This document shows, in pieces, positions 2,951 to 57,789 of a DNA stretch of 64,000 bases (position 1 is its first letter; each line of letters opens with the position of its first letter). Below the pieces are notes generated by a model. It was not told the origin of the DNA. It saw only the letters and a program-made list of their open reading frames with translations, and ran no database searches. Made by a program: the position numbers and the translations under genes. The stretch is from Patescibacteria group bacterium (GTDB lineage Bacteria > Patescibacteriota > Minisyncoccia > Minisyncoccales > GWA2-38-27). The stretch spans positions 137,909 through 201,908 of the forward strand of contig JAHCRG010000006.1 in the NCBI GenBank assembly GCA_020148045.1, given 5' to 3'.

Positions 2951-3053
2951 TTTCTATCCAGTATAGGCATAGACAGAGATGAAAGAAAGAGAGGTAATTT
3001 ATGAACAGAAGGATTTTAATAGTAACAATGGCTTTGGTAATTCTTCTTGGTTT
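2918..3053 (+). repeat. 136-bp duplicated block, copy 1 (csgG 3' end, intergenic region, RBS and curlin signal peptide)
   Basis: Matches 4392-4527 with a single mismatch by direct comparison. Confidence 0.9.
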
Positions 3054-3978
3054 ATCCGGCTTGGCTCTTGCTGATGGTAATACCAGCACTGTCGATCAGA
3101 CCGGCAACGACAACAGAGCTAGGGTTAGCCAAGATGGCAGTGGTAATGAAGCCACTATCACCCAGGAAGGCGATGACAACGTTGCTTCTCAGAGTCAGAC
3201 CGGCGACGAGGACATTGCCATTATCACCCAGACAGGCAATGGGAACACAGCTTACCAGTCCCAGACCGGCAGCACTAACAACCAAGCCACTATTGTGCAA
3301 AACACCAGTGGCACTGGGAATATTGCTAGCCAAACCCAGAACGGCAGTTGGAATATTGCCTTGATTCAGCAAATTGAAAGTAGTACTCTCAATACTGCTG
3401 CTCAGGTCCAGACGGGTATTGGGAACGATGCCTCGATTGAGCAGAGTGGGTCCGCAGCTGGGAACACGGCTAACCAAACCCAGATTGGAACCGGCGTCGC
3501 CTGGAACATAGCTAAGATACGGCAGAGGGGAAAAGACTCCATCGCCAGGCAATACCAGGACGGCCGTGGCAACGATGCCTATATTGGCCAGTTTTCATCT
3601 TACAACTATGCTGCACAGAACCAGACAGGTGAGTACAATGGGGCCAAGATTATGCAGTTTGCCGCACACAACATTGCTTACCAAACCCAAGTTGGTATCT
3701 CCAATATTGCTGAGATTGAGCAGCGGGGAGTTGGAAACTATGCTCGACAAAACCAGACAGGTGATGACAATGAGGCCAAAATTTCCCAGAACCCGTACCC
3801 TAGTGATGGTGGCGGCAACGTAGCTTACCAAACTCAGAACGGTAACGGCAACTATGCTGAAGCTACGCAGGTTGGTTGGAACAATTGGAGTTCTCAGACC
3901 CAGACCGGTGACTTCGATTCGAGCATTGTTACTCAGATAGGGGATGGTAATGTAGCTACGGTTGTCCAAACTCCGTAA
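3001..3978 (+). CDS. csgA: Curlin-repeat amyloid subunit (CsgA/CsgB-like), 325 aa with approx 25 strand motifs
   Basis: Signal peptide (..GLALA), then iterated Q-x-G-x-x-N-x-A-x-x-x-Q units, for example VSQDGSGNEATITQEGDDNVASQSQTGDEDIAIITQTGNGNTAYQSQ. Confidence 0.88.
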   Translation: MNRRILIVTMALVILLGLSGLALADGNTSTVDQTGNDNRARVSQDGSGNEATITQEGDDNVASQSQTGDEDIAIITQTGNGNTAYQSQTGSTNNQATIVQNTSGTGNIASQTQNGSWNIALIQQIESSTLNTAAQVQTGIGNDASIEQSGSAAGNTANQTQIGTGVAWNIAKIRQRGKDSIARQYQDGRGNDAYIGQFSSYNYAAQNQTGEYNGAKIMQFAAHNIAYQTQVGISNIAEIEQRGVGNYARQNQTGDDNEAKISQNPYPSDGGGNVAYQTQNGNGNYAEATQVGWNNWSSQTQTGDFDSSIVTQIGDGNVATVVQTP

Positions 3979-4053
3979 GTTAAGTCAATGTTTTAACCCG
4001 GAGCAATAGTGCTCCATAGAATTTTCATCTTGTCTATATTTGGAAGAAATAAA

Positions 4054-4083
4054 CCCCCACTACCAATTTCATTGGTGTGAGGG
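4054..4083 (+). terminator. Imperfect hairpin of the CCCCCAC(T/A)ACCAA...TTGGTGTGAGGG family, 3' of curlin gene 1
   Basis: cccccactaccaa-atttca-ttggtgtgaggg. A second, better terminator (gggcgagga...tcttcgccc plus T-run) follows at about 4133-4170. Confidence 0.45.
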
Positions 4084-4209
4084 TAAACCTATTACTACCA
4101 GAAATTTTTTTGAAGTTTTGGTGTGAGGGTGAAGGGCGAGGATTAAAAAAATCTTCGCCCTGTTTTTATTTTTTATTTCCATTTCCGATTTTTTTTACAT
4201 TTCTATTTT

Positions 4210-4236
4210 GCCCGAGGCCCGTCCTCGGGCAGTTTT
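4210..4236 (+). terminator. Intrinsic terminator, copy 2 of the triplicated hairpin
   Basis: tgcccgaggcccgtcctcgggca plus tttt. Confidence 0.8.
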
Positions 4237-4278
4237 GGTGTAGGGGTTGACCCCCACTTTTGTTAGTTTGAATGGAGG

Positions 4279-4307
4279 TTGACAATCTTCTTTGGTTATG
4301 ATAATTT
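4279..4307 (+). promoter_or_regulatory. Sigma70-type promoter of curlin gene 2
   Basis: TTGACA (4279-4284), 17 nt ending in TGa, then TAATTT (4302-4307). Confidence 0.6.
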
Positions 4308-4342
4308 ACAAGATATCTAAAAATCAATTCGTTAAAGGAAAA

Positions 4343-4389
4343 AATCCGAGAGGATTGATTTTTATCTTGGCGGTTCGTTTAAAACTTAA
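4343..4389 (+). promoter_or_regulatory. Conserved 5' leader element, copy 2
   Basis: Exact 47-nt repeat of 576-622. Confidence 0.55.
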
Positions 4390-4391
4390 AA

Positions 4392-4424
4392 GGTAACTTG
4401 GTAGCAGTTAAGGACGTTGAATGA
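4392..4424 (+). pseudogene. 33-nt relic of the csgG 3' end (GNLVAVKDVE-stop) carried by the duplication
   Basis: Identical to csgG 2918-2950, but no csgG body lies upstream of it. Confidence 0.8.
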
Positions 4425-4474
4425 TTTCTATCCAGTATAGACATAGACAGAGATGAAAGAAAGAGAGGTAATTT

Positions 4475-5380
4475 ATGAACAGAAGGATTTTAATAGTAAC
4501 AATGGCTTTGGTAATTCTTCTTGGTTTGTCTGGATTAGCTTTTGCCGATGGGAATGTGAGCACGGTCAATCAGACCGGCGCTGGCAATAGTGCTACGGTT
4601 AGCCAAGCTGGTATTAACAACGATGCTGAGATTACTCAAAATGGCAATGGGAACGTTTCTTCTCAGAGCCAAGCCGGCCCTGTTGGTAATAACGAAGCTA
4701 AGATTCTCCAGGTTGGTAACACGAATATTGCTTCCCAAGACCAGAGGATCGGCAACAACCTGGCCGAGATTAAGCAGACCAGTACAGGTAGCAACCTTGC
4801 TTCTCAAATCCAGTGGGGCCAATGGAATATTGCCCTGATTGAGCAAATTGAAGGGAGCAACGGCAATAGGGCTTACCAAGTCCAGCTCAGTAAAGGCCAC
4901 AATGCTTATATTAAGCAGGACGAGAACGCAACTGGCAACTATGCTTCTCAAACCCAGTCTGGTGGTCCTGGGATGGGCGGCGAGAACACCGCTGGGATAT
5001 GGCAGAGCGGAGACTCCGCCACTGCCATTCAGAACCAGACTGGTAATGTGAATGGTGCCTACATTAGGCAGAGAGGCGTTGCCAGCCGGGCTTACCAAAC
5101 CCAATATGGTATCTCCAACGCCGCCTTTATTGTCCAGTTCTCATCTGGAAACTATGCTGCACAAGACCAGACAGGTGAGGGCAATGAAGCCAGGATTCGG
5201 CAGTTTGGCGGTGACGGCAACGTAGCTTACCAAACCCAGAACGGTAACGACAACGATGCTTTCGCTACGCAGGTTGGTTCTAGTAATTTCAGTTCTCAGA
5301 CCCAGAACGGCACCAGCGATTTCAGTGTTGTCCAGCAGATAGGAAACGGTAATGTGTCTACGGTTGTCCAAAGCAACTAA
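4475..5380 (+). CDS. Second curlin-repeat amyloid subunit (CsgA/CsgB-like), 301 aa
   Basis: The first 17 residues match the 3001 gene exactly, the next 8 differ at 2 positions, and the repeats then diverge (VSQAGINNDAEITQNGNGNVSSQSQ...). The C-terminal IGNGNVSTVVQ is paralogous to IGDGNVATVVQ. Confidence 0.88.
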   Translation: MNRRILIVTMALVILLGLSGLAFADGNVSTVNQTGAGNSATVSQAGINNDAEITQNGNGNVSSQSQAGPVGNNEAKILQVGNTNIASQDQRIGNNLAEIKQTSTGSNLASQIQWGQWNIALIEQIEGSNGNRAYQVQLSKGHNAYIKQDENATGNYASQTQSGGPGMGGENTAGIWQSGDSATAIQNQTGNVNGAYIRQRGVASRAYQTQYGISNAAFIVQFSSGNYAAQDQTGEGNEARIRQFGGDGNVAYQTQNGNDNDAFATQVGSSNFSSQTQNGTSDFSVVQQIGNGNVSTVVQSN

Positions 5381-5540
5381 GTCAATGTTTTAACCCGGGG
5401 CAATAGTGCTCCATAGAATTTCATCTTGTTTATGTTTGGAAGAAATAAACCCCCACTACCAATTTCATTGGTGTGAGGGTGAAGGGCGAGGATTAAAAAA
5501 TCTTCGCCCTGTTTTTTTCGATTTTTTTACATTTCTATTT

Positions 5541-5568
5541 TGCCCGAGGCCCGTCCTCGGGCAGTTTT
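5541..5568 (+). terminator. Intrinsic terminator, copy 3 of the triplicated hairpin
   Basis: tgcccgaggcccgtcctcgggca plus tttt. Confidence 0.8.
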
Positions 5569-5584
5569 GGTATAAAAGGAAGGT

Positions 5585-5613
5585 TTGACAATCTTCTTTG
5601 GCTGTGATAATTT
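5585..5613 (+). promoter_or_regulatory. Sigma70-type promoter of the beta-barrel protein gene
   Basis: TTGACA (5585-5590), 17 nt ending in TGa, then TAATTT (5608-5613). Nearly identical to the promoter at 4279. Confidence 0.6.
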
Positions 5614-5852
5614 ACAGGATAGTTTGAAACCAATTCTTTGAAGGAAAGAATTAGGAGAATTGGTTTTTAACGGTTCTTTGAAAATTTAAGAAAGGAGGTG
5701 ATGGAAATGGAAAGAAAAATGCCAAGAGAGCCACCCGGAGAATAGATTAAGCCAGAAAATGAAGTATTTGTTTTGGCAGTCAATTGTATTTTGTAGGAAA
5801 TTTTATTGAAAAGAAACTGTTTTTTCACAATTAAATTCAGAAAGGAATTGTT

Positions 5853-6671
5853 ATGGAAAAGAGATTGTTACTGTTAGTTGTGGTGCTTGTGGTGGTTGGT
5901 TTGGGGAGTTCTCCTGCTTTTGCCTTAGACCCGATGGGGCCTCCAACAGGGAACCTGAGACAGGGGCAGTCTCAAGCAGGGATTGATTACTCCTACAGCA
6001 CAATGGACCTTAAATTAACCAACGGTAAATGGACTGAGTATAAAAATGGAAGGTTTTACGACTCAGGAGAAGCGTTTTCCTTGACCCTCAAGAATTTCAA
6101 GATGAATAAGGTATATGCCAACTTTGGATATGGCATCTTTGACAACTGGGACCTATTTTTGCGTTTAGGCGGAGCAGACGCCAAATTTGGTGACTCAATC
6201 TGGGAAGAAGGAGAAAAATTTGATGGCCCGGCTAGTTTTACAATTGGCTTTGGTACCAAAGCAACCTTTTATCAAGAGGGTCCTCTCAAATTGGGCGGAC
6301 TGTTTCAAGCAAGTTGGGCTGATTTGGATGGGCATCTAAAAGCAAAGGACTGGGCTGACTCTGTTGATATTGAGCTTACTGAGATGCAAATCGCTATAGG
6401 CCCAAGCTATGAGCTGGCAGACGGTGTTTCTATTTACGGCGGCCCCTTTTTCCATTTCGTTAATGGCGATTTAGATGATAATTTTAGTGAGACGTGGAAC
6501 GGAGATGTCTTGAGTTCGAAATACTCCTGGGATATTGGTGAGGCCTCTACTTTCGGTTATTATATTGGTTTTCAGGGAGTGAACCTCACCGAAAACATTT
6601 TTCTCAACATCGAGTACCAGCGTACAGCATCAGCTGATGCTCTTGGTCTGAAGCTCATCTGGAGATTTTAG
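5853..6671 (+). CDS. Outer-membrane beta-barrel-type protein (OMP_b-brl / porin-like), 272 aa
   Basis: Signal peptide ending in PAFA. Alternating amphipathic strands rich in G, Y and aromatic residues. The C-terminal LKLIWRF ends in Phe, a typical BAM beta-signal. Confidence 0.6.
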   Translation: MEKRLLLLVVVLVVVGLGSSPAFALDPMGPPTGNLRQGQSQAGIDYSYSTMDLKLTNGKWTEYKNGRFYDSGEAFSLTLKNFKMNKVYANFGYGIFDNWDLFLRLGGADAKFGDSIWEEGEKFDGPASFTIGFGTKATFYQEGPLKLGGLFQASWADLDGHLKAKDWADSVDIELTEMQIAIGPSYELADGVSIYGGPFFHFVNGDLDDNFSETWNGDVLSSKYSWDIGEASTFGYYIGFQGVNLTENIFLNIEYQRTASADALGLKLIWRF

Positions 6672-8586: not shown

Positions 8587-8699
8587 CAATGGCATCATTA
8601 GAGTAGCTTTTTGGTTCTTTCACCAAGTTTCACCAGAGTTTACTCTCTGCACAATGATGTCAGCAAGCCCTCACACCAAAATTAGTAGTGTGACGGGCA

Positions 8700-8748
8700 A
8701 GGGAGAGTTTGGCGTTCCCTCTCCGGCCAATACTCTCCCTCTTTTTTT
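8700..8748 (+). terminator. Terminator closing the tRNA-Val transcription unit
   Basis: agggagag (8700-8707) pairs with ctctccct (8734-8741), followed by a T7 run. Confidence 0.55.
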
Positions 8749-12435: not shown

Positions 12436-12466
12436 GGCCGGGTGGTCTTTGACCACTCGGCCTTTT
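12436..12466. terminator. Bidirectional intrinsic terminator
   Basis: ggccgggtggtc-ttt-gaccactcggcc plus tttt, between convergent genes. Confidence 0.8.
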
Positions 12467-44190: not shown

Positions 44191-44230
44191 CCCCCACACC
44201 AATATTTTGGTAGTGGGGGTCGAATTTTTT
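44191..44230 (+). terminator. Intrinsic terminator of the CCCCCACACCAA hairpin family
   Basis: cccccacaccaa-tatt-ttggtagtggggg plus tcgaatttttt. Confidence 0.75.
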
Positions 44231-50689: not shown

Positions 50690-51888
50690 AAAAGATTGTT
50701 TTAATTATTATTGATGGGCTGGGGGATAGGCCGATTGCGGCTCTTGGGAATAAAACCCCGCTTGAAGCAGCTAAGACGCCTAATTTGGATTTTTTAGTTG
50801 AAAATGGAATTTGTGGTTTAGTTGAACCTAAGTTTCAAGGCGCTACCCCAACATCTGAAGGCGCCCATTTTTCTTTGTTTGGTTATGACCCTGAAGTTTA
50901 TAAAATAAGGAGGGGAATTATTACAGCAACAGGCGCTGGGCTTAAAGCAAAAAAAGGAGATGTTGCTTTGAGAGGAAACTTTGCTACTGTTGATAAAGAA
51001 CTAAATATGATTGATAGAAGAGCTGGCAGAATTAAAAATCCAGGTCTTTTGATTAAAGCTTTAAATGGAATAAAAATTAACAATGTAAGATTTTTATTAA
51101 AAAGCGCCACAGAACATAGATTGGGAATTATAATGAGAGGGAAAAATTTGAGCCCTGATATTTCAGACGGTGATCCTCATTATGGAAAACTTGGGAAAAA
51201 GGCAAGAAAAATTAAACCTTTTAATAAGAGTGCTAACGCAGTTTTTACAGCTAAAGTTTTGAATAAATTTTTAAAAAGAGCCGGTCAGATTTTAAAAGCT
51301 CATCCCTTGAATAAAAAAAGAGAAAAAATGGGATTGCCAGTAGCAAACTATATTTTAGTGAGAGGTGCTTCTACTGTTAAAAAATTACCTTCTTTTAAAA
51401 AGAGATATAACTTGAAAGCCTGTTGTATCGCCGGCAAGTTTCTTTATCAACAGATTGGCAAGATTTTAGGGATGGACCTGATAAAAGTTAAAGGAGCTAA
51501 TGGGCTTGTTAACACAAACTTGAAAGGGAAAGTTCAAGCTGTAAAAAAGGCCCTGAGAAAGTATAATTTTGTTTTCTTACATATTAAGGCAACGGATTCT
51601 TTGGCTGAGGACGGGAACTTTAAAGGAAAAAAAGAATTTATTGAGAAGATAGATGGAAATTTGAAACCAATTTTAAATCTTAAAGATACCTTAATAGTAG
51701 CTACGGCTGACCATTCCACTTGCTGTTCTCTCAAAAGACATTGTTCAGAGCCGATACCAATTTTAATTTTTGGCGATGGTAAAGATTCGGTGAAAGAATT
51801 TTCTGAAAAGGTTTGTCAGAAAGGAAAGTTAGGAAGAATAAAGCAGACAAATTTAATGAAGAAAGTTTTGGCTATTGCCAAGAAATAA
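50686..51888 (+). CDS. apgM: Cofactor-independent phosphoglycerate mutase, archaeal type (ApgM)
   Basis: IIDGLGDRP, KTPNLDFL, FLHIKATDSLAEDGN, ATADHSTC. Confidence 0.85.
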   Translation: MKKIVLIIIDGLGDRPIAALGNKTPLEAAKTPNLDFLVENGICGLVEPKFQGATPTSEGAHFSLFGYDPEVYKIRRGIITATGAGLKAKKGDVALRGNFATVDKELNMIDRRAGRIKNPGLLIKALNGIKINNVRFLLKSATEHRLGIIMRGKNLSPDISDGDPHYGKLGKKARKIKPFNKSANAVFTAKVLNKFLKRAGQILKAHPLNKKREKMGLPVANYILVRGASTVKKLPSFKKRYNLKACCIAGKFLYQQIGKILGMDLIKVKGANGLVNTNLKGKVQAVKKALRKYNFVFLHIKATDSLAEDGNFKGKKEFIEKIDGNLKPILNLKDTLIVATADHSTCCSLKRHCSEPIPILIFGDGKDSVKEFSEKVCQKGKLGRIKQTNLMKKVLAIAKK

Positions 51889-51910
51889 ACATTTTGCTAA
51901 AATAAAAAAT

Positions 51911-52639
51911 ATGAACAAGAACTTATTAGCAATAGCAATTATTATTGCAGGTGTCCTAATTGCTGGGGCAATCGTTTACACCAACTATTCAAAGTCTTCA
52001 GAAGAGGGTGAGGTTTTGTCTTCCCAAGAAGCCGGGGAGAAGATGGTAAATTTTATTAGTGATAATATCTTACAGGGAGAAGCTGCCATTTCTTTAATAG
52101 AGACATTGGAAGAGAATGGGTTGTACAAAGTTAAGTTTGAGGTTGAAGGAGAAGAGGTAGAATGGCGTATAACAAAAGATGGAGAGCTTATCTTTCCTCA
52201 AGTAATTGATTTAGCAGAATTTGAACTACCGGCAGAAGAGACAGGTCAGACAATTGGGAATTTTTCAGTAAGTAATGATGAAGTTTGTAAAGAGAATGGT
52301 AAACCCATTGTTTATTTTTTTGGCTCTGAGGAATGTAGTTATTGTAAATGGGAGCATCCTGTAATGGAAGAGGTGGCAGCAAAATTTGAGGGAGAGATAG
52401 CTTTTCATAATAATATGGATTCAGAAGCTGATATGGATGTATTTTCCAAATATAGCACTGGCGGTGGCATACCAACTTTAGTTTTAGGGTGTAAATATTA
52501 CCGAGTTGGAGCTGGAACCCAATCTGGCGAAGAAAAAGAAACAGAGTATTTAACTGCTTTAATTTGTAAGTTAACAGAGAATAAACCTGCTGACGTCTGT
52601 AGCTCTGTTCAAGATTTAATTAACGAAATAAAAGATTAA
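51911..52639 (+). CDS. Membrane-anchored thioredoxin-fold (DsbA-like) protein
   Basis: Start at MNKNLLAIAIIIAG. CSYC redox motif in a thioredoxin-like C-terminal domain. Confidence 0.65.
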   Translation: MNKNLLAIAIIIAGVLIAGAIVYTNYSKSSEEGEVLSSQEAGEKMVNFISDNILQGEAAISLIETLEENGLYKVKFEVEGEEVEWRITKDGELIFPQVIDLAEFELPAEETGQTIGNFSVSNDEVCKENGKPIVYFFGSEECSYCKWEHPVMEEVAAKFEGEIAFHNNMDSEADMDVFSKYSTGGGIPTLVLGCKYYRVGAGTQSGEEKETEYLTALICKLTENKPADVCSSVQDLINEIKD

Positions 52640-52643
52640 TGAA

Positions 52644-52871
52644 ATGGTTAAAGTTTTTTCCACCCCAAGCTGTCCATACTGTGTTACTTTAAAAGAATTT
52701 TTGAAAGAGCATGATATTGAATTTGAAGATATTGATGTTTCTCAAGATAAAGTTGCTTTGGATGAGATGGTAAAAAAATCAGGCCAGATGGGAGTTCCAG
52801 TTGTGGATATAGATGGCCAGATTGTTATTGGCTTTGATAAGGAGAAAATCACTAAATTATTAAATCTATGA
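52644..52871 (+). CDS. Glutaredoxin/NrdH-like small redoxin
   Basis: 75 aa. KVFSTPSCPYC...GVPVVDIDG. Confidence 0.85.
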   Translation: MVKVFSTPSCPYCVTLKEFLKEHDIEFEDIDVSQDKVALDEMVKKSGQMGVPVVDIDGQIVIGFDKEKITKLLNL

Positions 52872-53833
52872 TAAAAATTGCTATAAATGGTTTCGGAAGA
52901 ATAGGTCGTCCTACATTCCGAAGAATTATTGACAATCATCCTGATTTGGAAGTTGTTGCTATTAATGATTTAACTGATAACAAAACATTGGCTCATCTTT
53001 TAAAATACGATTCTATATATGGAAGATATGATAAAGAGATTACTTGTGCTATGCTTGCTGAAGCAGAACCGGAGAAACTTCCATGGAAGAAATTAGAAGT
53101 TGATATTGTTTTAGAATGCACTGGTCGTTTTACTGATTTGCAAGGAGCTAAAAAACATATTAAAGCAGGCGCAAAAAAAGTAATAATTTCAGCTCCCGGA
53201 AAAGACCCAGAGATTCCGGGTTTTGTTTTGGGCGTTAATGAAGAGAAATTTGACCCTAAAAAAGATGAAATTATTGATATGGGCTCTTGCACTACTAATT
53301 GTTTGGCTCCGCTCGTAAAAGTTTTAAATGATAATTTTGAAATTAAAAATGGCTTTATGACCACTGTTCACAGCTATACCAATGACCAGAGAATATTGGA
53401 TTTACCTCACAAGGATTTAAGAAGAACCAGGGCCGCTGCTTTGAATATTATTCCAACTACTACTGGGGCTACCAAAGCAATTGGAAAGATTATCCCTGAA
53501 TTAGACGGGAAGTTGGATGGAATTGCTATAAGAGTTCCAACTCCAACAGTTTCAATTTTAGATTTAATCGTTGAAATAGAGAAATCAACAACTAAAGAGA
53601 AAGTTAATGCTGCATTTAAAAAAGCTGCTAACCAGCTTAAAGGGATTTTGAGAGTAGAAGAAGAGCCATTGGTTTCCACTGACTATATCGGCGACACTTA
53701 TTCAGCCATTGTTGACGCTTCTCAAACAATGGTTAAAGACAAGTTAATTAAAGTCCTTGGCTGGTATGATAATGAATATGGTTATGCCTGCCGTTTAGCA
53801 GAATTCACTGAATACGTAGGCAAGAAATTATAA
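52868..53833 (+). CDS. gap: Glyceraldehyde-3-phosphate dehydrogenase (compact, 321 aa)
   Basis: INGFGRIGR, SCTTNCLAP, WYDNEYGY. Confidence 0.92.
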   Translation: MIKIAINGFGRIGRPTFRRIIDNHPDLEVVAINDLTDNKTLAHLLKYDSIYGRYDKEITCAMLAEAEPEKLPWKKLEVDIVLECTGRFTDLQGAKKHIKAGAKKVIISAPGKDPEIPGFVLGVNEEKFDPKKDEIIDMGSCTTNCLAPLVKVLNDNFEIKNGFMTTVHSYTNDQRILDLPHKDLRRTRAAALNIIPTTTGATKAIGKIIPELDGKLDGIAIRVPTPTVSILDLIVEIEKSTTKEKVNAAFKKAANQLKGILRVEEEPLVSTDYIGDTYSAIVDASQTMVKDKLIKVLGWYDNEYGYACRLAEFTEYVGKKL

Positions 53834-53852
53834 TTATATAATTTAGAGAAGC

Positions 53853-53884
53853 AAAAAGGCCGAAACTTTCGTTTCGGCCTTTTT
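53853..53884. terminator. Bidirectional intrinsic terminator
   Basis: A5-ggccgaaac-tttc-gtttcggcc-T5. Confidence 0.85.
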
Positions 53885-53899
53885 GCTTCTTGCTCCTCT

Positions 53900-54076
53900 T
53901 TAGTCTTCTTTCTCTTCTTTTTTTTCTATTTTCTTTTTCTCTTCCACTTGCGGAAATCTCTTTTTAATATCTTTAGTAAGCCAATCACCGCTAAGTTTTT
54001 GGCTTCTTTTTATTATATCAGTGGTGGTATATTTTTCTTTGGTTTTATCTCTTTTTGGAAGATTTTTTAACATCAT
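53900..54076 (-). CDS. Possible 58-aa charged protein overlapping the 3' end of the protease gene (below the ORF-track cutoff)
   Basis: Hand translation gives MMLKNLPKRDKTKEKYTTTDIIKRSQKLSGDWLTKDIKKRFPQVEEKKKIEKKEEKED. I recognise no RBS. It ends just before the terminator. Confidence 0.3.
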   Translation of the reverse strand: MMLKNLPKRDKTKEKYTTTDIIKRSQKLSGDWLTKDIKKRFPQVEEKKKIEKKEEKED

Positions 54077-54902
54077 TTTTTTCTATATAAATTATTTTAA
54101 AGTAATATTTTTTAAATATTTCCTCAAAGTCTTTTTTGATTATTTTCCATTCTTTCAAAGACTCTAACTTTTCAACGGTCAGCTTGAGAGCATTTTTTGC
54201 TTCATTTAAAAATATAGAATATTCGTGCGCTGGATAATTATTAACAAAGGCTCTCGCTGTTCGAAGAGCTTTTTTGAAATCATTTTTCATCATTGCAGCC
54301 GATAATAAATCTATGGCATAAAATAAAGCTACTCTAAGTTCCCGATAACTCTTTTGAAGGTGATAAGGGTCAATTTGTTGAATAACTGGTTTAACAAATT
54401 CGGTTGCTATATGTAGAGCTAACTTAGCAGAATCAAGTCTTGATAATTTAATTTCGTTTTGACGAAGAAATTTATATCGGTCGTTTGCTATACTCTCTGA
54501 AAGATTAGATAGTGTCGTTATTATATTTTGGATATCAAGTGCAGATATCCTTGAACCATCTCTTGGGTGTTCCATAGGTAAATCCAAAGGACCAAGAGCA
54601 GCTTTGTCGCTCATATAAATTACATCTCCTCCTAATGCCATTAAAGTTCCCGCACTTTTTGCATAATTTGGAATAAGTATATAAATTTTTTGAAACCTCT
54701 TTCTCAAAAGAGTCATAATGGCAACTGCAGAAAAAGGATCTCCTCCATATGTTTGCAAAACCAAAAATAGCTTTTCACTTTGGTGATTTTTAATTTCTTT
54801 TTCAACTTCGTCTAAACAGGTTGAATCTATTTTTCTATTTTCATCTACTAAAAAAATTAAGTAGGAAGTTTTTGGCATCAATCTAATTATATCATAATCC
54901 AA
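54045..54902 (-). CDS. ClpP/crotonase-fold serine protease (SDH / SppA-like family)
   Basis: LVLQTYGGDPFSAVAIMTLL and NYAKSAGTLMALGGDVIYM match the serine dehydrogenase proteinase pattern. Confidence 0.65.
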   Translation of the reverse strand: MDYDIIRLMPKTSYLIFLVDENRKIDSTCLDEVEKEIKNHQSEKLFLVLQTYGGDPFSAVAIMTLLRKRFQKIYILIPNYAKSAGTLMALGGDVIYMSDKAALGPLDLPMEHPRDGSRISALDIQNIITTLSNLSESIANDRYKFLRQNEIKLSRLDSAKLALHIATEFVKPVIQQIDPYHLQKSYRELRVALFYAIDLLSAAMMKNDFKKALRTARAFVNNYPAHEYSIFLNEAKNALKLTVEKLESLKEWKIIKKDFEEIFKKYYFKIIYIEKNDVKKSSKKR

Positions 54903-54919
54903 AAATATTACAAATTTAC

Positions 54920-54948
54920 TTGACTTATCTTTTAAAGAACTTTATACT
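54920..54948 (+). promoter_or_regulatory. Sigma70-type promoter driving the structured RNA candidate
   Basis: TTGACT (54920-54925), 17 nt, TATACT (54943-54948). Confidence 0.6.
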
Positions 54949-54954
54949 GAAAGT

Positions 54955-55145
54955 AGCCTCCCAGAGGCAGCCCGTTAGAGCAACCGCAACATAGCGAGAA
55001 GCGGGGCAACGGCAATACGATGAAATAAGTGTAAAAATCCTTATAGTAGCAGTAGAGTTTGACTCTCAATTCGAGAAGATATACAACTAACTATTATAAG
55101 GGGCTTATTGAAGGAGATATGTGCTGGGAGGCTTTTCGTTTTTGG
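54955..55145 (+). ncRNA. Unclassified structured RNA candidate (approx 190 nt, multi-helix junction)
   Basis: P1 AGCCUCCCAG (54955-64) pairs with CUGGGAGGCU (55124-33), followed by UUUUCGUUUUU. Nested helices are GCCCGUU/AACGGC, CCGC/GCGG, the 11-bp CCUUAUAGUAG/CUAUUAUAAGG, and GAGU/ACUC. The segment is GC-enriched relative to its flanks and has no ORF. Confidence 0.55.
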
Positions 55146-55210
55146 AAAAATTCCATTACTTGAAACATTGGGCTATATGCCTTGAAGGGGGCTTTGAGGA
55201 GAGGCCTTGA

Positions 55211-55250
55211 CCATGCCAAAAATCGTCCGATCGGACGATTTTTGGCATGG
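55211..55250. terminator. Perfect 40-bp palindrome (strong hairpin) upstream of the acs promoter
   Basis: ccatgccaaaaatcgtccga|tcggacgatttttggcatgg, followed by gtacttttt. Confidence 0.65.
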
Positions 55251-55272
55251 GTACTTTTTCACAGAAAAACCT

Positions 55273-55300
55273 TTGTTAAATTTCTTCTACAGGGTATAAT
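55273..55300 (+). promoter_or_regulatory. acs promoter with leaderless geometry
   Basis: TTGTTA, 16 nt, TATAAT (55295-55300). The ATG lies 8 nt downstream and there is no SD. Confidence 0.5.
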
Positions 55301-55308
55301 AGAATAAC

Positions 55309-57231
55309 ATGATTAAAAAAGGCAATCTATATTATCCAAGCAAAGAATTTAAAAAAAAGGCCTGGGTTAATAATAAGGCAATTTATAAGAAAGCTAGCAG
55401 GAATCCAAAAAAGTTTTGGGAGGATTTAGCCAAAGATTTGCTTTGGTTTAAAAAATGGAGAAAAGTTTTTGTTCACAAGCCGCCATACTTTAAGTGGTTT
55501 GTAGACGGAAAACTCAATATTACTCAAAATGCTTTGGACAGAAATTTAGAGAAGAAGAAAAATAAAGTTGCTCTAATCTGGGAACCGGAGCCAATTAAGG
55601 AGAAATCAAGAGTTTTCACCTATTACGACCTGTTTAGAGAAGTTAACAAATTTGCCAATGTTTTGAAGAAATTAGGAGTGAAAAAGGGGAATAGGGTAGG
55701 AATTTATTTGCCAATGATTCCAGAAGTGGTAATTGCAATGTTGGCTTGCGCTCGTCTTGGAGCAGTTCATTCAGTTGTGTTCTCAGCTTTTAGTTCTCGG
55801 GCTTTGAACATAAGATTGCAAGATACTAAAGCAAAAATCTTAATAACAGCAGATGGTTATTTTCGGCGAGGTAAGGTTATTGATTTAAAGAAAAATGCTG
55901 ACGAAGGTATAAAGAAGACAGAGGTGAAAAAAGTTATTGTGGTAAAAAGAACAGGGAATCCAGTCAAGATAAAGAAAGGTCGTGATCTTTGGTGGCAGGA
56001 ATTAATTGAGAAGGAGAAAGACCAATGCGAGCCAGTACCAATGGATTCAGAAGACCTTTTGTTTGTGCTTTACACAAGCGGGAGTACGGGACGGCCCAAA
56101 GGCTGCGAACACGTCTGCGGTGGCTACACTGTCCAGGCCTATTGGACAGGCAAATGGATATTTGATTTGAAAGAGGATGATATTTTTTGGTGCACTTCAG
56201 ACCCTGGCTGGATAACAGGACATACCTACACAGTTTATTCTCCATTGCTTAACGGAGTAACAAGTCTGATGTATGAAGGCGTTCCGGATTACCCGACGCC
56301 TGATAGATGGGCTCAGATTATTGAAAAATACGGGGTGACGATTTTTTATACTGCGCCAACAGCCATCCGGATGTTTGAGAAATACGGAACAGGTTTAGTT
56401 AGAAAGCATAAATTTAAAACCTTGCGGCTTTTAGGTTCAGTAGGTGAGTGTATTGATCAAGCAGCGTGGCAGTGGTATTTTAAAGAAGTTGGAAAGGGAA
56501 AGCGTCCTTTGGTAGATACTTGGTGGCAGACGGAAACAGGCGGAATTTTAATTACTTCTTTACCCGGCCTCGGTCCCTTTAAGCCAACTTTCACCGGACT
56601 ACCTTTTCCGGGAATAAAAGCTGATATTTTAGATAGTAAGGGAAAATCACTGCCTCCTAACAAAGAAGGAAATTTGGTGATATTGCCTCCTTTCGCTCCC
56701 GGGCTTTTGCGAGGGGTCTATAAGAATCCAAAGAGATATTTAAAAACTTATTGGAGTCAATATGGTAAGAAAACTTATTTTACCAGCGATGGGGCTTATC
56801 GGGATAAGAAGGGACTAATAAGAATTATTGGCAGGGTTGATGATGTAATTAAAGTAGCAGGCCATAGGGTAACTACCGGTGAGTTAGAAAGTGCGATTGC
56901 TTTGCACAAAGATATCACAGAGTGCGCTGTGGTTGGCAAGACGGATGAAATAAAAGGAGAGGTTCCAATTGCTTTCGTGGTTTCCAAAACCAAAAAATCG
57001 TCAGAAGTGATAGCAAAAGAGGTAATTACTCAAGTGAGAAAAGAAATAGGACCGATTGCTTCGCCTAAAGAAGTTTATCTGGTTAAAGATTTACCAAAAA
57101 CCCGCAGCGGAAAAATTATGAGACGGATTTTAAGAAAATTATTTACCGGGGAAGAGTTGGGCGATTTGAGTACTTTAGCTAATCCTGAAAGCGTTGAGAA
57201 GATTAAAAAAATAATTCACCCGATTAAATAA
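55309..57231 (+). CDS. acs: Acetyl-CoA synthetase (AMP-forming)
   Basis: YTSGSTGRPKG, WWQTETGG, TRSGKIMRR. The length of 640 aa is typical. Confidence 0.93.
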   Translation: MIKKGNLYYPSKEFKKKAWVNNKAIYKKASRNPKKFWEDLAKDLLWFKKWRKVFVHKPPYFKWFVDGKLNITQNALDRNLEKKKNKVALIWEPEPIKEKSRVFTYYDLFREVNKFANVLKKLGVKKGNRVGIYLPMIPEVVIAMLACARLGAVHSVVFSAFSSRALNIRLQDTKAKILITADGYFRRGKVIDLKKNADEGIKKTEVKKVIVVKRTGNPVKIKKGRDLWWQELIEKEKDQCEPVPMDSEDLLFVLYTSGSTGRPKGCEHVCGGYTVQAYWTGKWIFDLKEDDIFWCTSDPGWITGHTYTVYSPLLNGVTSLMYEGVPDYPTPDRWAQIIEKYGVTIFYTAPTAIRMFEKYGTGLVRKHKFKTLRLLGSVGECIDQAAWQWYFKEVGKGKRPLVDTWWQTETGGILITSLPGLGPFKPTFTGLPFPGIKADILDSKGKSLPPNKEGNLVILPPFAPGLLRGVYKNPKRYLKTYWSQYGKKTYFTSDGAYRDKKGLIRIIGRVDDVIKVAGHRVTTGELESAIALHKDITECAVVGKTDEIKGEVPIAFVVSKTKKSSEVIAKEVITQVRKEIGPIASPKEVYLVKDLPKTRSGKIMRRILRKLFTGEELGDLSTLANPESVEKIKKIIHPIK

Positions 57232-57234
57232 AAA

Positions 57235-57789
57235 ATGAAAGTTCTTATTGCAATTGACAATAACTTTATAAGGGAAACCTATTCAGAGGTTTTTAAGACA
57301 GAAAATTTTGAGGTGTTAGAGACAAAAAAGGGAAAAGAGGCCCTGGCTTTGTCTAAGGAAGAAAAACCGGATATTGTTATAGCTGACATCGCTCTTTCAG
57401 AAATAGGAGGATTTAAATTATTAAAAACCCTCAAAGAAGAAACTTCAACTGAGAAAATCCCAGTAATTATTTTTGCTCAATTTGAAAAAAAAGAGGATAG
57501 GAGAAAAGCAATGGAATTGGAAGCCAAGGACTTTATTGCAGCTGCCAGCGTTTCCCCAGTTGAAGTAATTCGAAAAGTAAAAATTGCTTTAGGGAAACAA
57601 AGATCTTACCGTATATCTATGCCGAAGGACCTACATGATGCCAGAGAATTGATTACTGATTTAGGTTATAGTTATGATTTTAAATGTCCCAAATGCGGCT
57701 CTGATCTTTTGTTGTGTTTAATAAGAGACCTTTCAAAAGGTGAGAAATATTTTATATTATCTGTTATTTGTCCTGAATGTAATAAATGA
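57235..57789 (+). CDS. Orphan response-regulator receiver domain fused to a C-terminal zinc ribbon
   Basis: REC pattern (KVLIAIDNN, PDIVIADIAL, PVIIFA, K at the expected position). CPKC...CPEC at the C-terminus. Confidence 0.7.
   Translation: MKVLIAIDNNFIRETYSEVFKTENFEVLETKKGKEALALSKEEKPDIVIADIALSEIGGFKLLKTLKEETSTEKIPVIIFAQFEKKEDRRKAMELEAKDFIAAASVSPVEVIRKVKIALGKQRSYRISMPKDLHDARELITDLGYSYDFKCPKCGSDLLLCLIRDLSKGEKYFILSVICPECNK

Follow-up and report, generated by a model that had tools for sequence, protein, structure and literature searches.

Between the divergent genes for a ClpP-like serine protease and for acetyl-CoA synthetase (acs), the genome of an uncultivated, ultra-small bacterium of the Patescibacteria (Candidate Phyla Radiation, CPR) carries what we tentatively read, with a little less than even confidence, as a stand-alone, lineage-specific small RNA (sRNA) gene inside an insertion of 1.36 kb. 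The DNA analysed, which we call the window, is a stretch of 64,000 nucleotides (contig JAHCRG010000006.1, positions 137,909 to 201,908; all positions below are those of the window). It lies within a 165-kb scaffold (ENA ERZ23498930, ZHAO22-1 scaffold_16) of a metagenome-assembled genome, and its GC content is 36%. The candidate RNA unit sits in a 430-nt spacer, with the protease gene on its left and acs on its right, and is built around a promoter, a long-range helix (P1), a T-run (T1) and a second, canonical terminator (T2):

54920-54948, plus strand: sigma-70-type promoter TTGACT-17-TATACT, with 10/12 consensus matches, in the best-scoring class of the region
54955-54964, plus strand: 5' strand of P1, AGCCUCCCAG (DNA AGCCTCCCAG), which begins at the predicted transcription start and holds an anti-Shine-Dalgarno-like CCUCC
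55124-55133, plus strand: 3' strand of P1, CUGGGAGGCU (DNA CTGGGAGGCT), with a Shine-Dalgarno-like GGGAGG tract
55134-55145, plus strand: T-run UUUUCGUUUUUG directly 3' of P1, the proposed first stop T1
55211-55260, plus strand: T2, a canonical intrinsic terminator with a perfect hairpin of 18-20 bp (55211-55250, -32.3 kcal/mol, z -8.8) followed by GUACUUUUUC

How might such a unit work? The promoter would start transcription at about A54955, and the nascent RNA would fold into a three-way junction in which the 5' end pairs with 55124-55133 and encloses two arms, P2 and P3. Some transcripts would end at P1 and the T-run, as RNAs of about 185 nt whose ends are paired and protected; those that read through would stop at T2 as a fail-safe, at about 300 nt, and could refold into an equally stable rod. 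The RNA would be insulated from acs, and would most likely act in trans (by base-pairing or by binding a protein) and not as the leader of a flanking enzyme gene.

To our knowledge, almost nothing is known of non-coding RNAs in the Patescibacteria. A recent overview of the group treats riboswitches only as prospective genetic tools, and small RNAs go unmentioned (PMC11665869). If transcribed, the unit would be a concrete and experimentally approachable sRNA candidate in a CPR genome, located in a cluster of central-carbon genes, on DNA that was acquired or rearranged recently. The prediction comes from a single genome, with no homolog found for comparison, and should be taken as a lead and not as a finding.

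Transcription signals of the candidate unit

The promoter was called as a consensus match only. Its predicted start is A54955 or G54956, the former being the first base of P1. A sequence-only reading of this DNA had proposed just this placement of the start at the closing helix, with a U-rich tract behind the helix, and both arrangements are there. P1 is a perfect, GC-rich helix of 10 bp (100% complementary, with 3 further bp possible, GCA/UGU) that closes 159 nt, and it is followed by TTTTCGTTTTT at 55134-55144 (UUUUCGUUUUU in the RNA). Hexamers of like style stand at other genes of the same genome, for example TTGACA..GATAAT at 4281 and 5587, and the tail of T1 is interrupted in the manner of bona fide terminator tails of that genome, such as GGCCTTTTGCTTTTT at 12455. 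Since the T-run lies immediately 3' of P1, some transcripts may well stop at T1. The further proposal, that P1 doubles as the terminator, goes beyond these signals, as a canonical intrinsic terminator does not have a stem closing 159 nt, and one of the canonical kind lies 65 nt further on.

How unusual is the arrangement? Among the 60 perfect 10-bp inverted repeats of the window (spacing 30-300), only P1 has 7 or more G/C. We also defined a composite signal, with thresholds set on purpose below the observed values: a promoter with 9/12 matches or more; a helix beginning 4-10 nt after the -10 hexamer, with at least 8 Watson-Crick pairs, at least 4 of them GC, and closing 40-300 nt; and then a stretch of 9 nt with 6 or more T. 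With both strands of the window taken together, this composite occurs once, at the candidate site. In windows shuffled in blocks of 500 nt it occurs at 0.033 per window (2 of 60 shuffles), a rarity that is indicative only, because we chose the thresholds with the candidate already in view; two stricter composites gave 0 of 60. At the level of transcription signals, the candidate is probably more than chance.

Might the spacer nevertheless be non-functional DNA at a junction? On this explanation, which we consider somewhat unlikely, the 330 nt from the protease start to T2 would be filler, or a relic of the rearrangement that inserted an inverted module made up of the protease gene and a 58-aa open reading frame (ORF). 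T2 would once have ended a gene upstream of the protease in the donor, and the promoter-like hexamers and helices would be chance products of AT-rich DNA. Promoter-like sites are in fact common here, with 6 in 800 nt where 2.3 are expected. Against this explanation stands the rarity in shuffles of a promoter, a GC-rich closing helix and a T-run that occur jointly. The base composition is also unlike that of neutral decay in a genome of 36% GC, since the AT-rich spacer contains GC-rich segments: local GC is 52-55% at the candidate, and 17-25% in the promoter DNA on either side. The genome is moreover compact, with few gaps above 300 nt (the 406-nt gap that holds the candidate is the third-largest ORF-free gap of the window), and a coding remnant is not detectable. 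The candidate region has no ORF of more than 45 codons, Pfam finds no protein-domain remnant in any of its six frames, and six-frame tblastn against all collected loci gave no match that would mark a pseudogene.

T2 bears on the same question. In a terminator scan of the window, the other sites with a strong hairpin and a T-run all lie 7-155 nt behind the stop of a co-directional ORF. T2 is the only exception; it lies 1378 nt behind GAPDH, with no co-directional ORF within that span, and GAPDH has a terminator of its own at 53847-53890. With no protein gene to end, T2 implies either an unannotated plus-strand transcript or a relic, and it could indeed be a relic that was carried in with the inserted segment. 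A terminator of its own, not attributable to a protein gene, is one mark of an sRNA gene, and T2 is such a terminator. Together, the promoter, the helix, the T-run and the orphan terminator argue for a real plus-strand transcription unit of about 185 nt or about 300 nt. T2 lies between this unit and the acs promoter and insulates the one from the other. That acs would have a separate promoter downstream of a further strong hairpin was part of the sequence-only reading, and is confirmed (promoter 55273-55300, hairpin 55211-55250).

We note that the protease gene begins with 10 nt (ATGCCAAAAA, 54869-54878) that recur in both arms of T2 (55213-55222 and 55239-55248), 334 nt away. These copies form 10-bp inverted repeats that bracket the candidate; they are probably due to chance in AT-rich DNA, and could mark a recombination junction.

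Predicted folds and what they might imply

The minimum free energy (MFE) structure of 54954-55145 is a three-way junction of P1 with two arms:

54970-55013, plus strand: P2, a GC-rich arm (GCC-C-GUU/AACGGC, GC/GC and CCGC-N13-GCGG) with a 13-nt loop, AACAUAGCGAGAA, and one bulged C
55024-55109, plus strand: P3, an AU-rich arm consisting of P3a (AAUAAGU/GCUUAUU) and P3b ((U)CCUUAUAGUAG/CUAUUAUAAGG(G), with one G.U pair)

P2 folds as the nested GC-rich arm that had been described from the sequence, and the GC content here is 52-53%, compared with 36% for the window. For the AU-rich arm the earlier description stands in part. The 11-bp helix CCTTATAGTAG/CTATTATAAGG forms between 55039-55049 and 55091-55101, with one G.U pair. 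The two small hairpins said to be enclosed by it are present in the apical 41 nt (AGAGU/ACUCU at 55054-55066, and UCUC/GAGA at 55064-55076) but do not form jointly, because both use the strand 55064-55066.

The 7-mer CGAGAAG occurs twice in the unit, at 54995-55001 in the P2 loop and at 55072-55078 at the tip of P3. Each of them is complementary to CUUUUCG of the T-run (55132-55138), and in the terminated RNA the 3' tail could thus pair with a loop to form a pseudoknot. A repeated 7-mer within 180 nt is expected by chance.

The folding energies weigh against an sRNA gene at this site, as do the competing fold and the empty homology searches described below, the late choice of thresholds, and the view of T2 as a relic. 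At -52.7 kcal/mol the three-way junction has a z of -2.19, and 3 of 200 shuffles fold equally well. The asymmetry in energy favours the plus strand, as the minus strand folds at -48.3 kcal/mol; the z of the minus strand is -2.69. When cut at the ends of P1, the candidate has a z of -1.4 and stands at rank 357 of 4258 among genomic windows matched for composition, a background for which the MFE of 4258 windows of 180 nt from the same 64 kb was regressed on base composition. Taken alone, P2 folds at -12.5 kcal/mol (z -1.0) and P3 at -19.5 kcal/mol (z -2.5, with 1 of 200 shuffles equally good). By these calculations the candidate fold is thermodynamically ordinary.

A longer transcript has another choice of fold. 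For the 308-nt transcript that reaches T2, the MFE structure is a rod and not the three-way junction, and the 5' end finds a new partner:

55169-55193, plus strand: alternative partner of the 5' end, UGGGC..UGCCUU..GGGGGCU, which pairs with 54955-54974 in 18 bp arranged in three blocks

The rod further pairs AGCGAGAAGC at 54993-55002 (mostly the P2 loop) with GCUUUUCGUU at 55131-55140 (the end of P1 and the T-run), and CGGCA with UGCUG, so that P1 and P2 are dissolved and P3 is kept. With -105.5 kcal/mol for the rod and -104.8 kcal/mol when P1 is enforced, there are two incompatible and isoenergetic folds, which weakens the case for one defined architecture. The predicted pair probability of P1 is about 1.0 for RNAs that end at 55146-55184, 0.5 at 55216 and 0.2 at 55262. 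On neither strand of the window does the 5' 21-mer have a better duplex partner than the segment 55166-55195 (-28.6 kcal/mol, the next being -26.6 kcal/mol). As a 243-nt fold, the rod is strongly strand-specific (-69.1 kcal/mol on the plus strand versus -54.7 kcal/mol on the minus strand) and relies on G.U pairs; its z is only -2.2.

Is the rod a 6S RNA in disguise? We think it very unlikely that the unit encodes a highly divergent housekeeping RNA missed by the Rfam models, the most plausible being a 6S-like RNA that binds RNA polymerase. The likeness to 6S RNA (RF00013 and related families) includes a length in range, at about 180 nt, or 240 nt if counted as far as the closing stem; paired 5' and 3' ends; a promoter and terminator of its own; and, in the rod, an 18-bp closing stem, an 18/28-nt asymmetric bubble with a small 3' hairpin, and a long irregular internal stem. 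The three-way junction, however, is not 6S-like, the z of the rod is modest, and the 6S models give no match to the candidate even at E≤10. A housekeeping RNA should also occur in close relatives; nothing similar was found in the relatives' loci that we examined, and the element lies in a lineage-specific insertion.

The 3' strand of P1 suggests a different possibility, in which the structure regulates a small reading frame:

GTG 55121 to TGA 55208-55210, plus strand: candidate micro-ORF of 29 codons, with GAAGGAG 4 nt upstream, overlapping P1

The candidate RNA would then be the structured 5' leader, of the attenuator or riboswitch type, for a peptide of 22-29 residues (from GTG 55121 or TTG 55142 to TGA 55210). 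P1 would sequester GGGAGG and the start region, and together with the T-run would bring transcription to an early stop; the opening of P1 would allow read-through and translation. Several features fit. In addition to the GAAGGAG before GTG 55121, the GGGAGG of the P1 3' strand stands 10 nt before the in-frame TTG at 55142, the 5' strand is anti-Shine-Dalgarno-like (CCUCCC), and the stop of the ORF abuts the T2 hairpin. A promoter, a structured region, a T-run, an ORF and a terminator follow one another in the usual layout of a cis-regulated gene, and a multi-helix domain closed by P1 and followed by a U-tract is what terminating riboswitches and attenuators have. Nevertheless we judge such a leader unlikely. 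By our own estimate, an open frame of 29 codons at 36% GC has a chance of about 12% per start codon, so that chance alone should provide one such frame here. Neither public annotation of the genome calls a gene at this place, the peptide has neither a Pfam match in the six-frame search nor obvious features, and the searches found no homologs in which codon-level conservation could be seen. The only alternative partner of the P1 5' strand, 55169-55193, lies 3' of the T-run and is transcribed after it; it is therefore not expected to act as a classical antiterminator, and a co-transcriptionally plausible one appears to be lacking. Unlike the terminating riboswitches, the element is not conserved upstream of any gene in relatives and matches no known aptamer class, and the only coding candidate downstream is this unsupported ORF.

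A more ambitious proposal combines these ideas. The unit might be the first-seen example of an undescribed class of structured regulatory RNAs from the Patescibacteria, a three-way-junction domain in which P1 serves as a clamp for the transcript ends, as a terminator stem and as a helix that sequesters the Shine-Dalgarno tract by an anti-Shine-Dalgarno strand; such an RNA would switch to the rod, and would control a micro-protein or bind a protein in the manner of 6S RNA. We regard this as a long shot.

The insertion between GAPDH and acs

What occupies this place in related genomes? The acs relatives compared (L083-L086 and L088-L091, with acs 78-86% identical) have a common gene order: thioredoxin-like, glutaredoxin, GAPDH, acs, in some a response regulator, and PEP synthase. 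In 8 of 8 syntenic loci the acs promoter comes next after the GAPDH terminator, with neither a protease gene nor the candidate element between them. The GAPDH-acs spacers measure 100 nt (L083-85 and L088), 226 nt (L090/91), and 490 and 877 nt (L086 and L089, with unrelated small ORFs). The acs promoter block '...TTTTTCACA...GGTATAATAGAATAACATG' is kept almost base for base (L083 2960-3001, L086 2975-3003, L089 2510-2540, L090 2960-3001), and the window becomes homologous to L090 again only from about 55252, the shared part being the last ~57 nt, that is, the acs promoter. Among the compared loci, this genome alone has a segment of ~1.36 kb (~53896-55251) between the GAPDH terminator and the acs promoter. 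The segment holds the 58-aa ORF and the protease gene, both on the minus strand, as well as the candidate RNA unit and T2.

That the element lies exactly inside the lineage-specific insertion, where relatives pass from the GAPDH terminator directly to the acs promoter, is what one would expect of filler left by a rearrangement. So is the setting of the protease relatives. The nearest of them are only 57-60% identical, and those with known context have a co-directional gene upstream, across a spacer of 43-145 nt that contains no similar element. The absence of a homolog in any collection searched and the ordinary folding stability point the same way. For the sRNA gene that we favour, the same position would make the gene itself specific to this lineage.

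In other Patescibacteria (L082), the protease gene, a 59-aa ORF and GAPDH are all co-directional, so that the protease/58-aa module here looks translocated or inverted. We note also a contig from an independent assembly, L100 (Logan SRR10836662), which is 100% identical to window positions 50900-53892 and stops precisely where the GAPDH terminator hairpin marks the left edge of the presumed insertion. The break could be a branch in the assembly graph, reflecting heterogeneity of the population for the insertion, or a mere break at a palindrome.

The genes that flank the candidate have close-set promoters of their own:

ATG at 54878, minus strand: gene for an SDH/ClpP-like serine protease (PF01972)
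54913-54886, minus strand: protease promoter TTGTAA-16-TATAAT, back to back with the candidate promoter
55273-55300, plus strand: acs promoter TTGTTA-16-TATAAT, behind the 18-20-bp hairpin at 55211-55250
ATG at 55309, plus strand: acetyl-CoA synthetase gene, acs

In both genes the -10 hexamer ends 7-8 nt 5' of the ATG (8 nt for acs) and a Shine-Dalgarno sequence is absent. The two mRNAs would thus be essentially leaderless, and since their own promoters abut both ATGs, neither gene should need the candidate DNA as a leader. A role as acs leader or riboswitch was considered and excluded: the element is absent in relatives, T2 and the conserved acs promoter intervene, and acs transcription should not pass through it. 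Linkage to the protease was likewise excluded, as no similar sequence or structure occurs at 13 Patescibacteria protease loci or on 3 Logan contigs. Tied elsewhere to neither gene, the element is not an acs riboswitch, which the sequence-only reading had thought probable; the eight syntenic relatives, which keep the acs promoter and have no such element, support this.

The neighbours of the candidate are, then, the ClpP-like protease, acs, GAPDH, a response regulator and PEP synthase (a PEP-utilising enzyme). The response regulator, of 184 aa (window 57235-57789, between acs and PEP synthase), has a C-terminal CxxC...CxxC zinc ribbon in place of the standard DNA-binding output domain. It is found at the same place in L090 (5484-6041), and the closest acs relatives, L083-L086, are without it. 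Control of an RNA by this regulator through an ANTAR domain is ruled out, because its C-terminus is the zinc ribbon and not an ANTAR domain.

Searches for relatives and likeness to known elements

The candidate had been described as unclassified, and the covariance models bear this out. At gathering thresholds Rfam 15 finds only three tRNAs in the whole window, and ARAGORN the three tRNAs and no tmRNA. A permissive Rfam scan of 54850-55320 (E≤10) placed nothing over 54955-55145; its matches are chance hits of the T2 hairpin to miRNA and antisense models, at 15-19 bits where the gathering score is 79.

Homologs of the element itself were sought with nhmmer, blastn and R1, a calibrated single-sequence covariance model built on the three-way-junction structure. 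None was found in the window, in 13 GTDB Patescibacteria protease loci, in 11 acs loci or on 3 Logan protease contigs, the Patescibacteria loci amounting to ~150 kb. A first descriptor, with specified loops, only transitions (R/Y) allowed in the helices and a variable loop gap, had 0 matches on JGI metagenome contigs. A second, made from the J3/1 joining strand and the P1 3' strand, had 4 matches there, on unrelated contigs of 51-70% GC and all R1-negative. Three scans of viral contigs gave 0 matches, and blastn against phage and plasmid collections gave none; when identical short proteins (the 58-aa ORF and glutaredoxin) were used to look for variant strains, only the same sample came back. 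The absence of homologs is weakly supported by the pattern scans, as by our own estimate each catches about 10% of diverged homologs. With no homolog found, the helices have no support from covariation. The sequence-only reading had presented a defined multi-helix structured RNA and looked to homology and covariation to bear it out; given the empty searches and the ordinary folding energy, that part of it is left without comparative or thermodynamic backing.

Could P1 be the ends of a mobile element? If the unit were the remnant of a miniature inverted-repeat transposable element (MITE) or other mobile element, P1 would be its 10-bp terminal inverted repeats, and the perfect repeats that flank a 159-nt body inside an insertion do bear a formal, if only formal, resemblance to such an element. 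It is however single-copy in the 64 kb and flanks, has no target-site duplication (the flanking AAGT and TTTC differ), and finds no match in the phage, plasmid, viral and metagenome scans. A MITE would also leave the exact placement of the promoter and the T-run unexplained, and we hold this origin to be extremely improbable. Inverted repeats at both ends of an RNA of ~180 nt also recall the a1/a2 repeats of retron msr/msd RNAs; there is no reverse transcriptase gene nearby, and the unit does not belong with the retrons.

The closest likeness is to stand-alone sRNA genes in general, which have a sigma-70 promoter and an intrinsic terminator and are often lineage-specific. The candidate shares with them a near-consensus promoter, a structured body, a U-tract terminator, and a divergent intergenic position insulated from its neighbours. 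It differs in that its first stop would be a long-range helix closing 159 nt, where these genes have a compact hairpin.

Elsewhere in the window there are intergenic regions with far more stable predicted structure than the candidate RNA. Two near-duplicate regions of ~480 nt, 3979-4474 and 5381-5852, follow tandem paralogous genes (3001-3978, 4475-5380 and 5853-6671), and in each a pair of strong hairpin terminators precedes a TTGACA-type promoter and a leader of 150-250 nt. They are among the most stable composition-matched windows, with z -4.1 to -4.4. A GC-rich hairpin, CCCCCAC(T)ACCAA..TTGGT(G/A)GTG(A/G)GGG, recurs at 4054-4085, 5450-5480 and 44192-44220, with a similar one at 8670-8700. 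It is thus present in at least 3-4 intergenic regions, a 13-mer from it having 3 matches where 0.24 are expected, and it looks like a small family of repeated intergenic palindromes.

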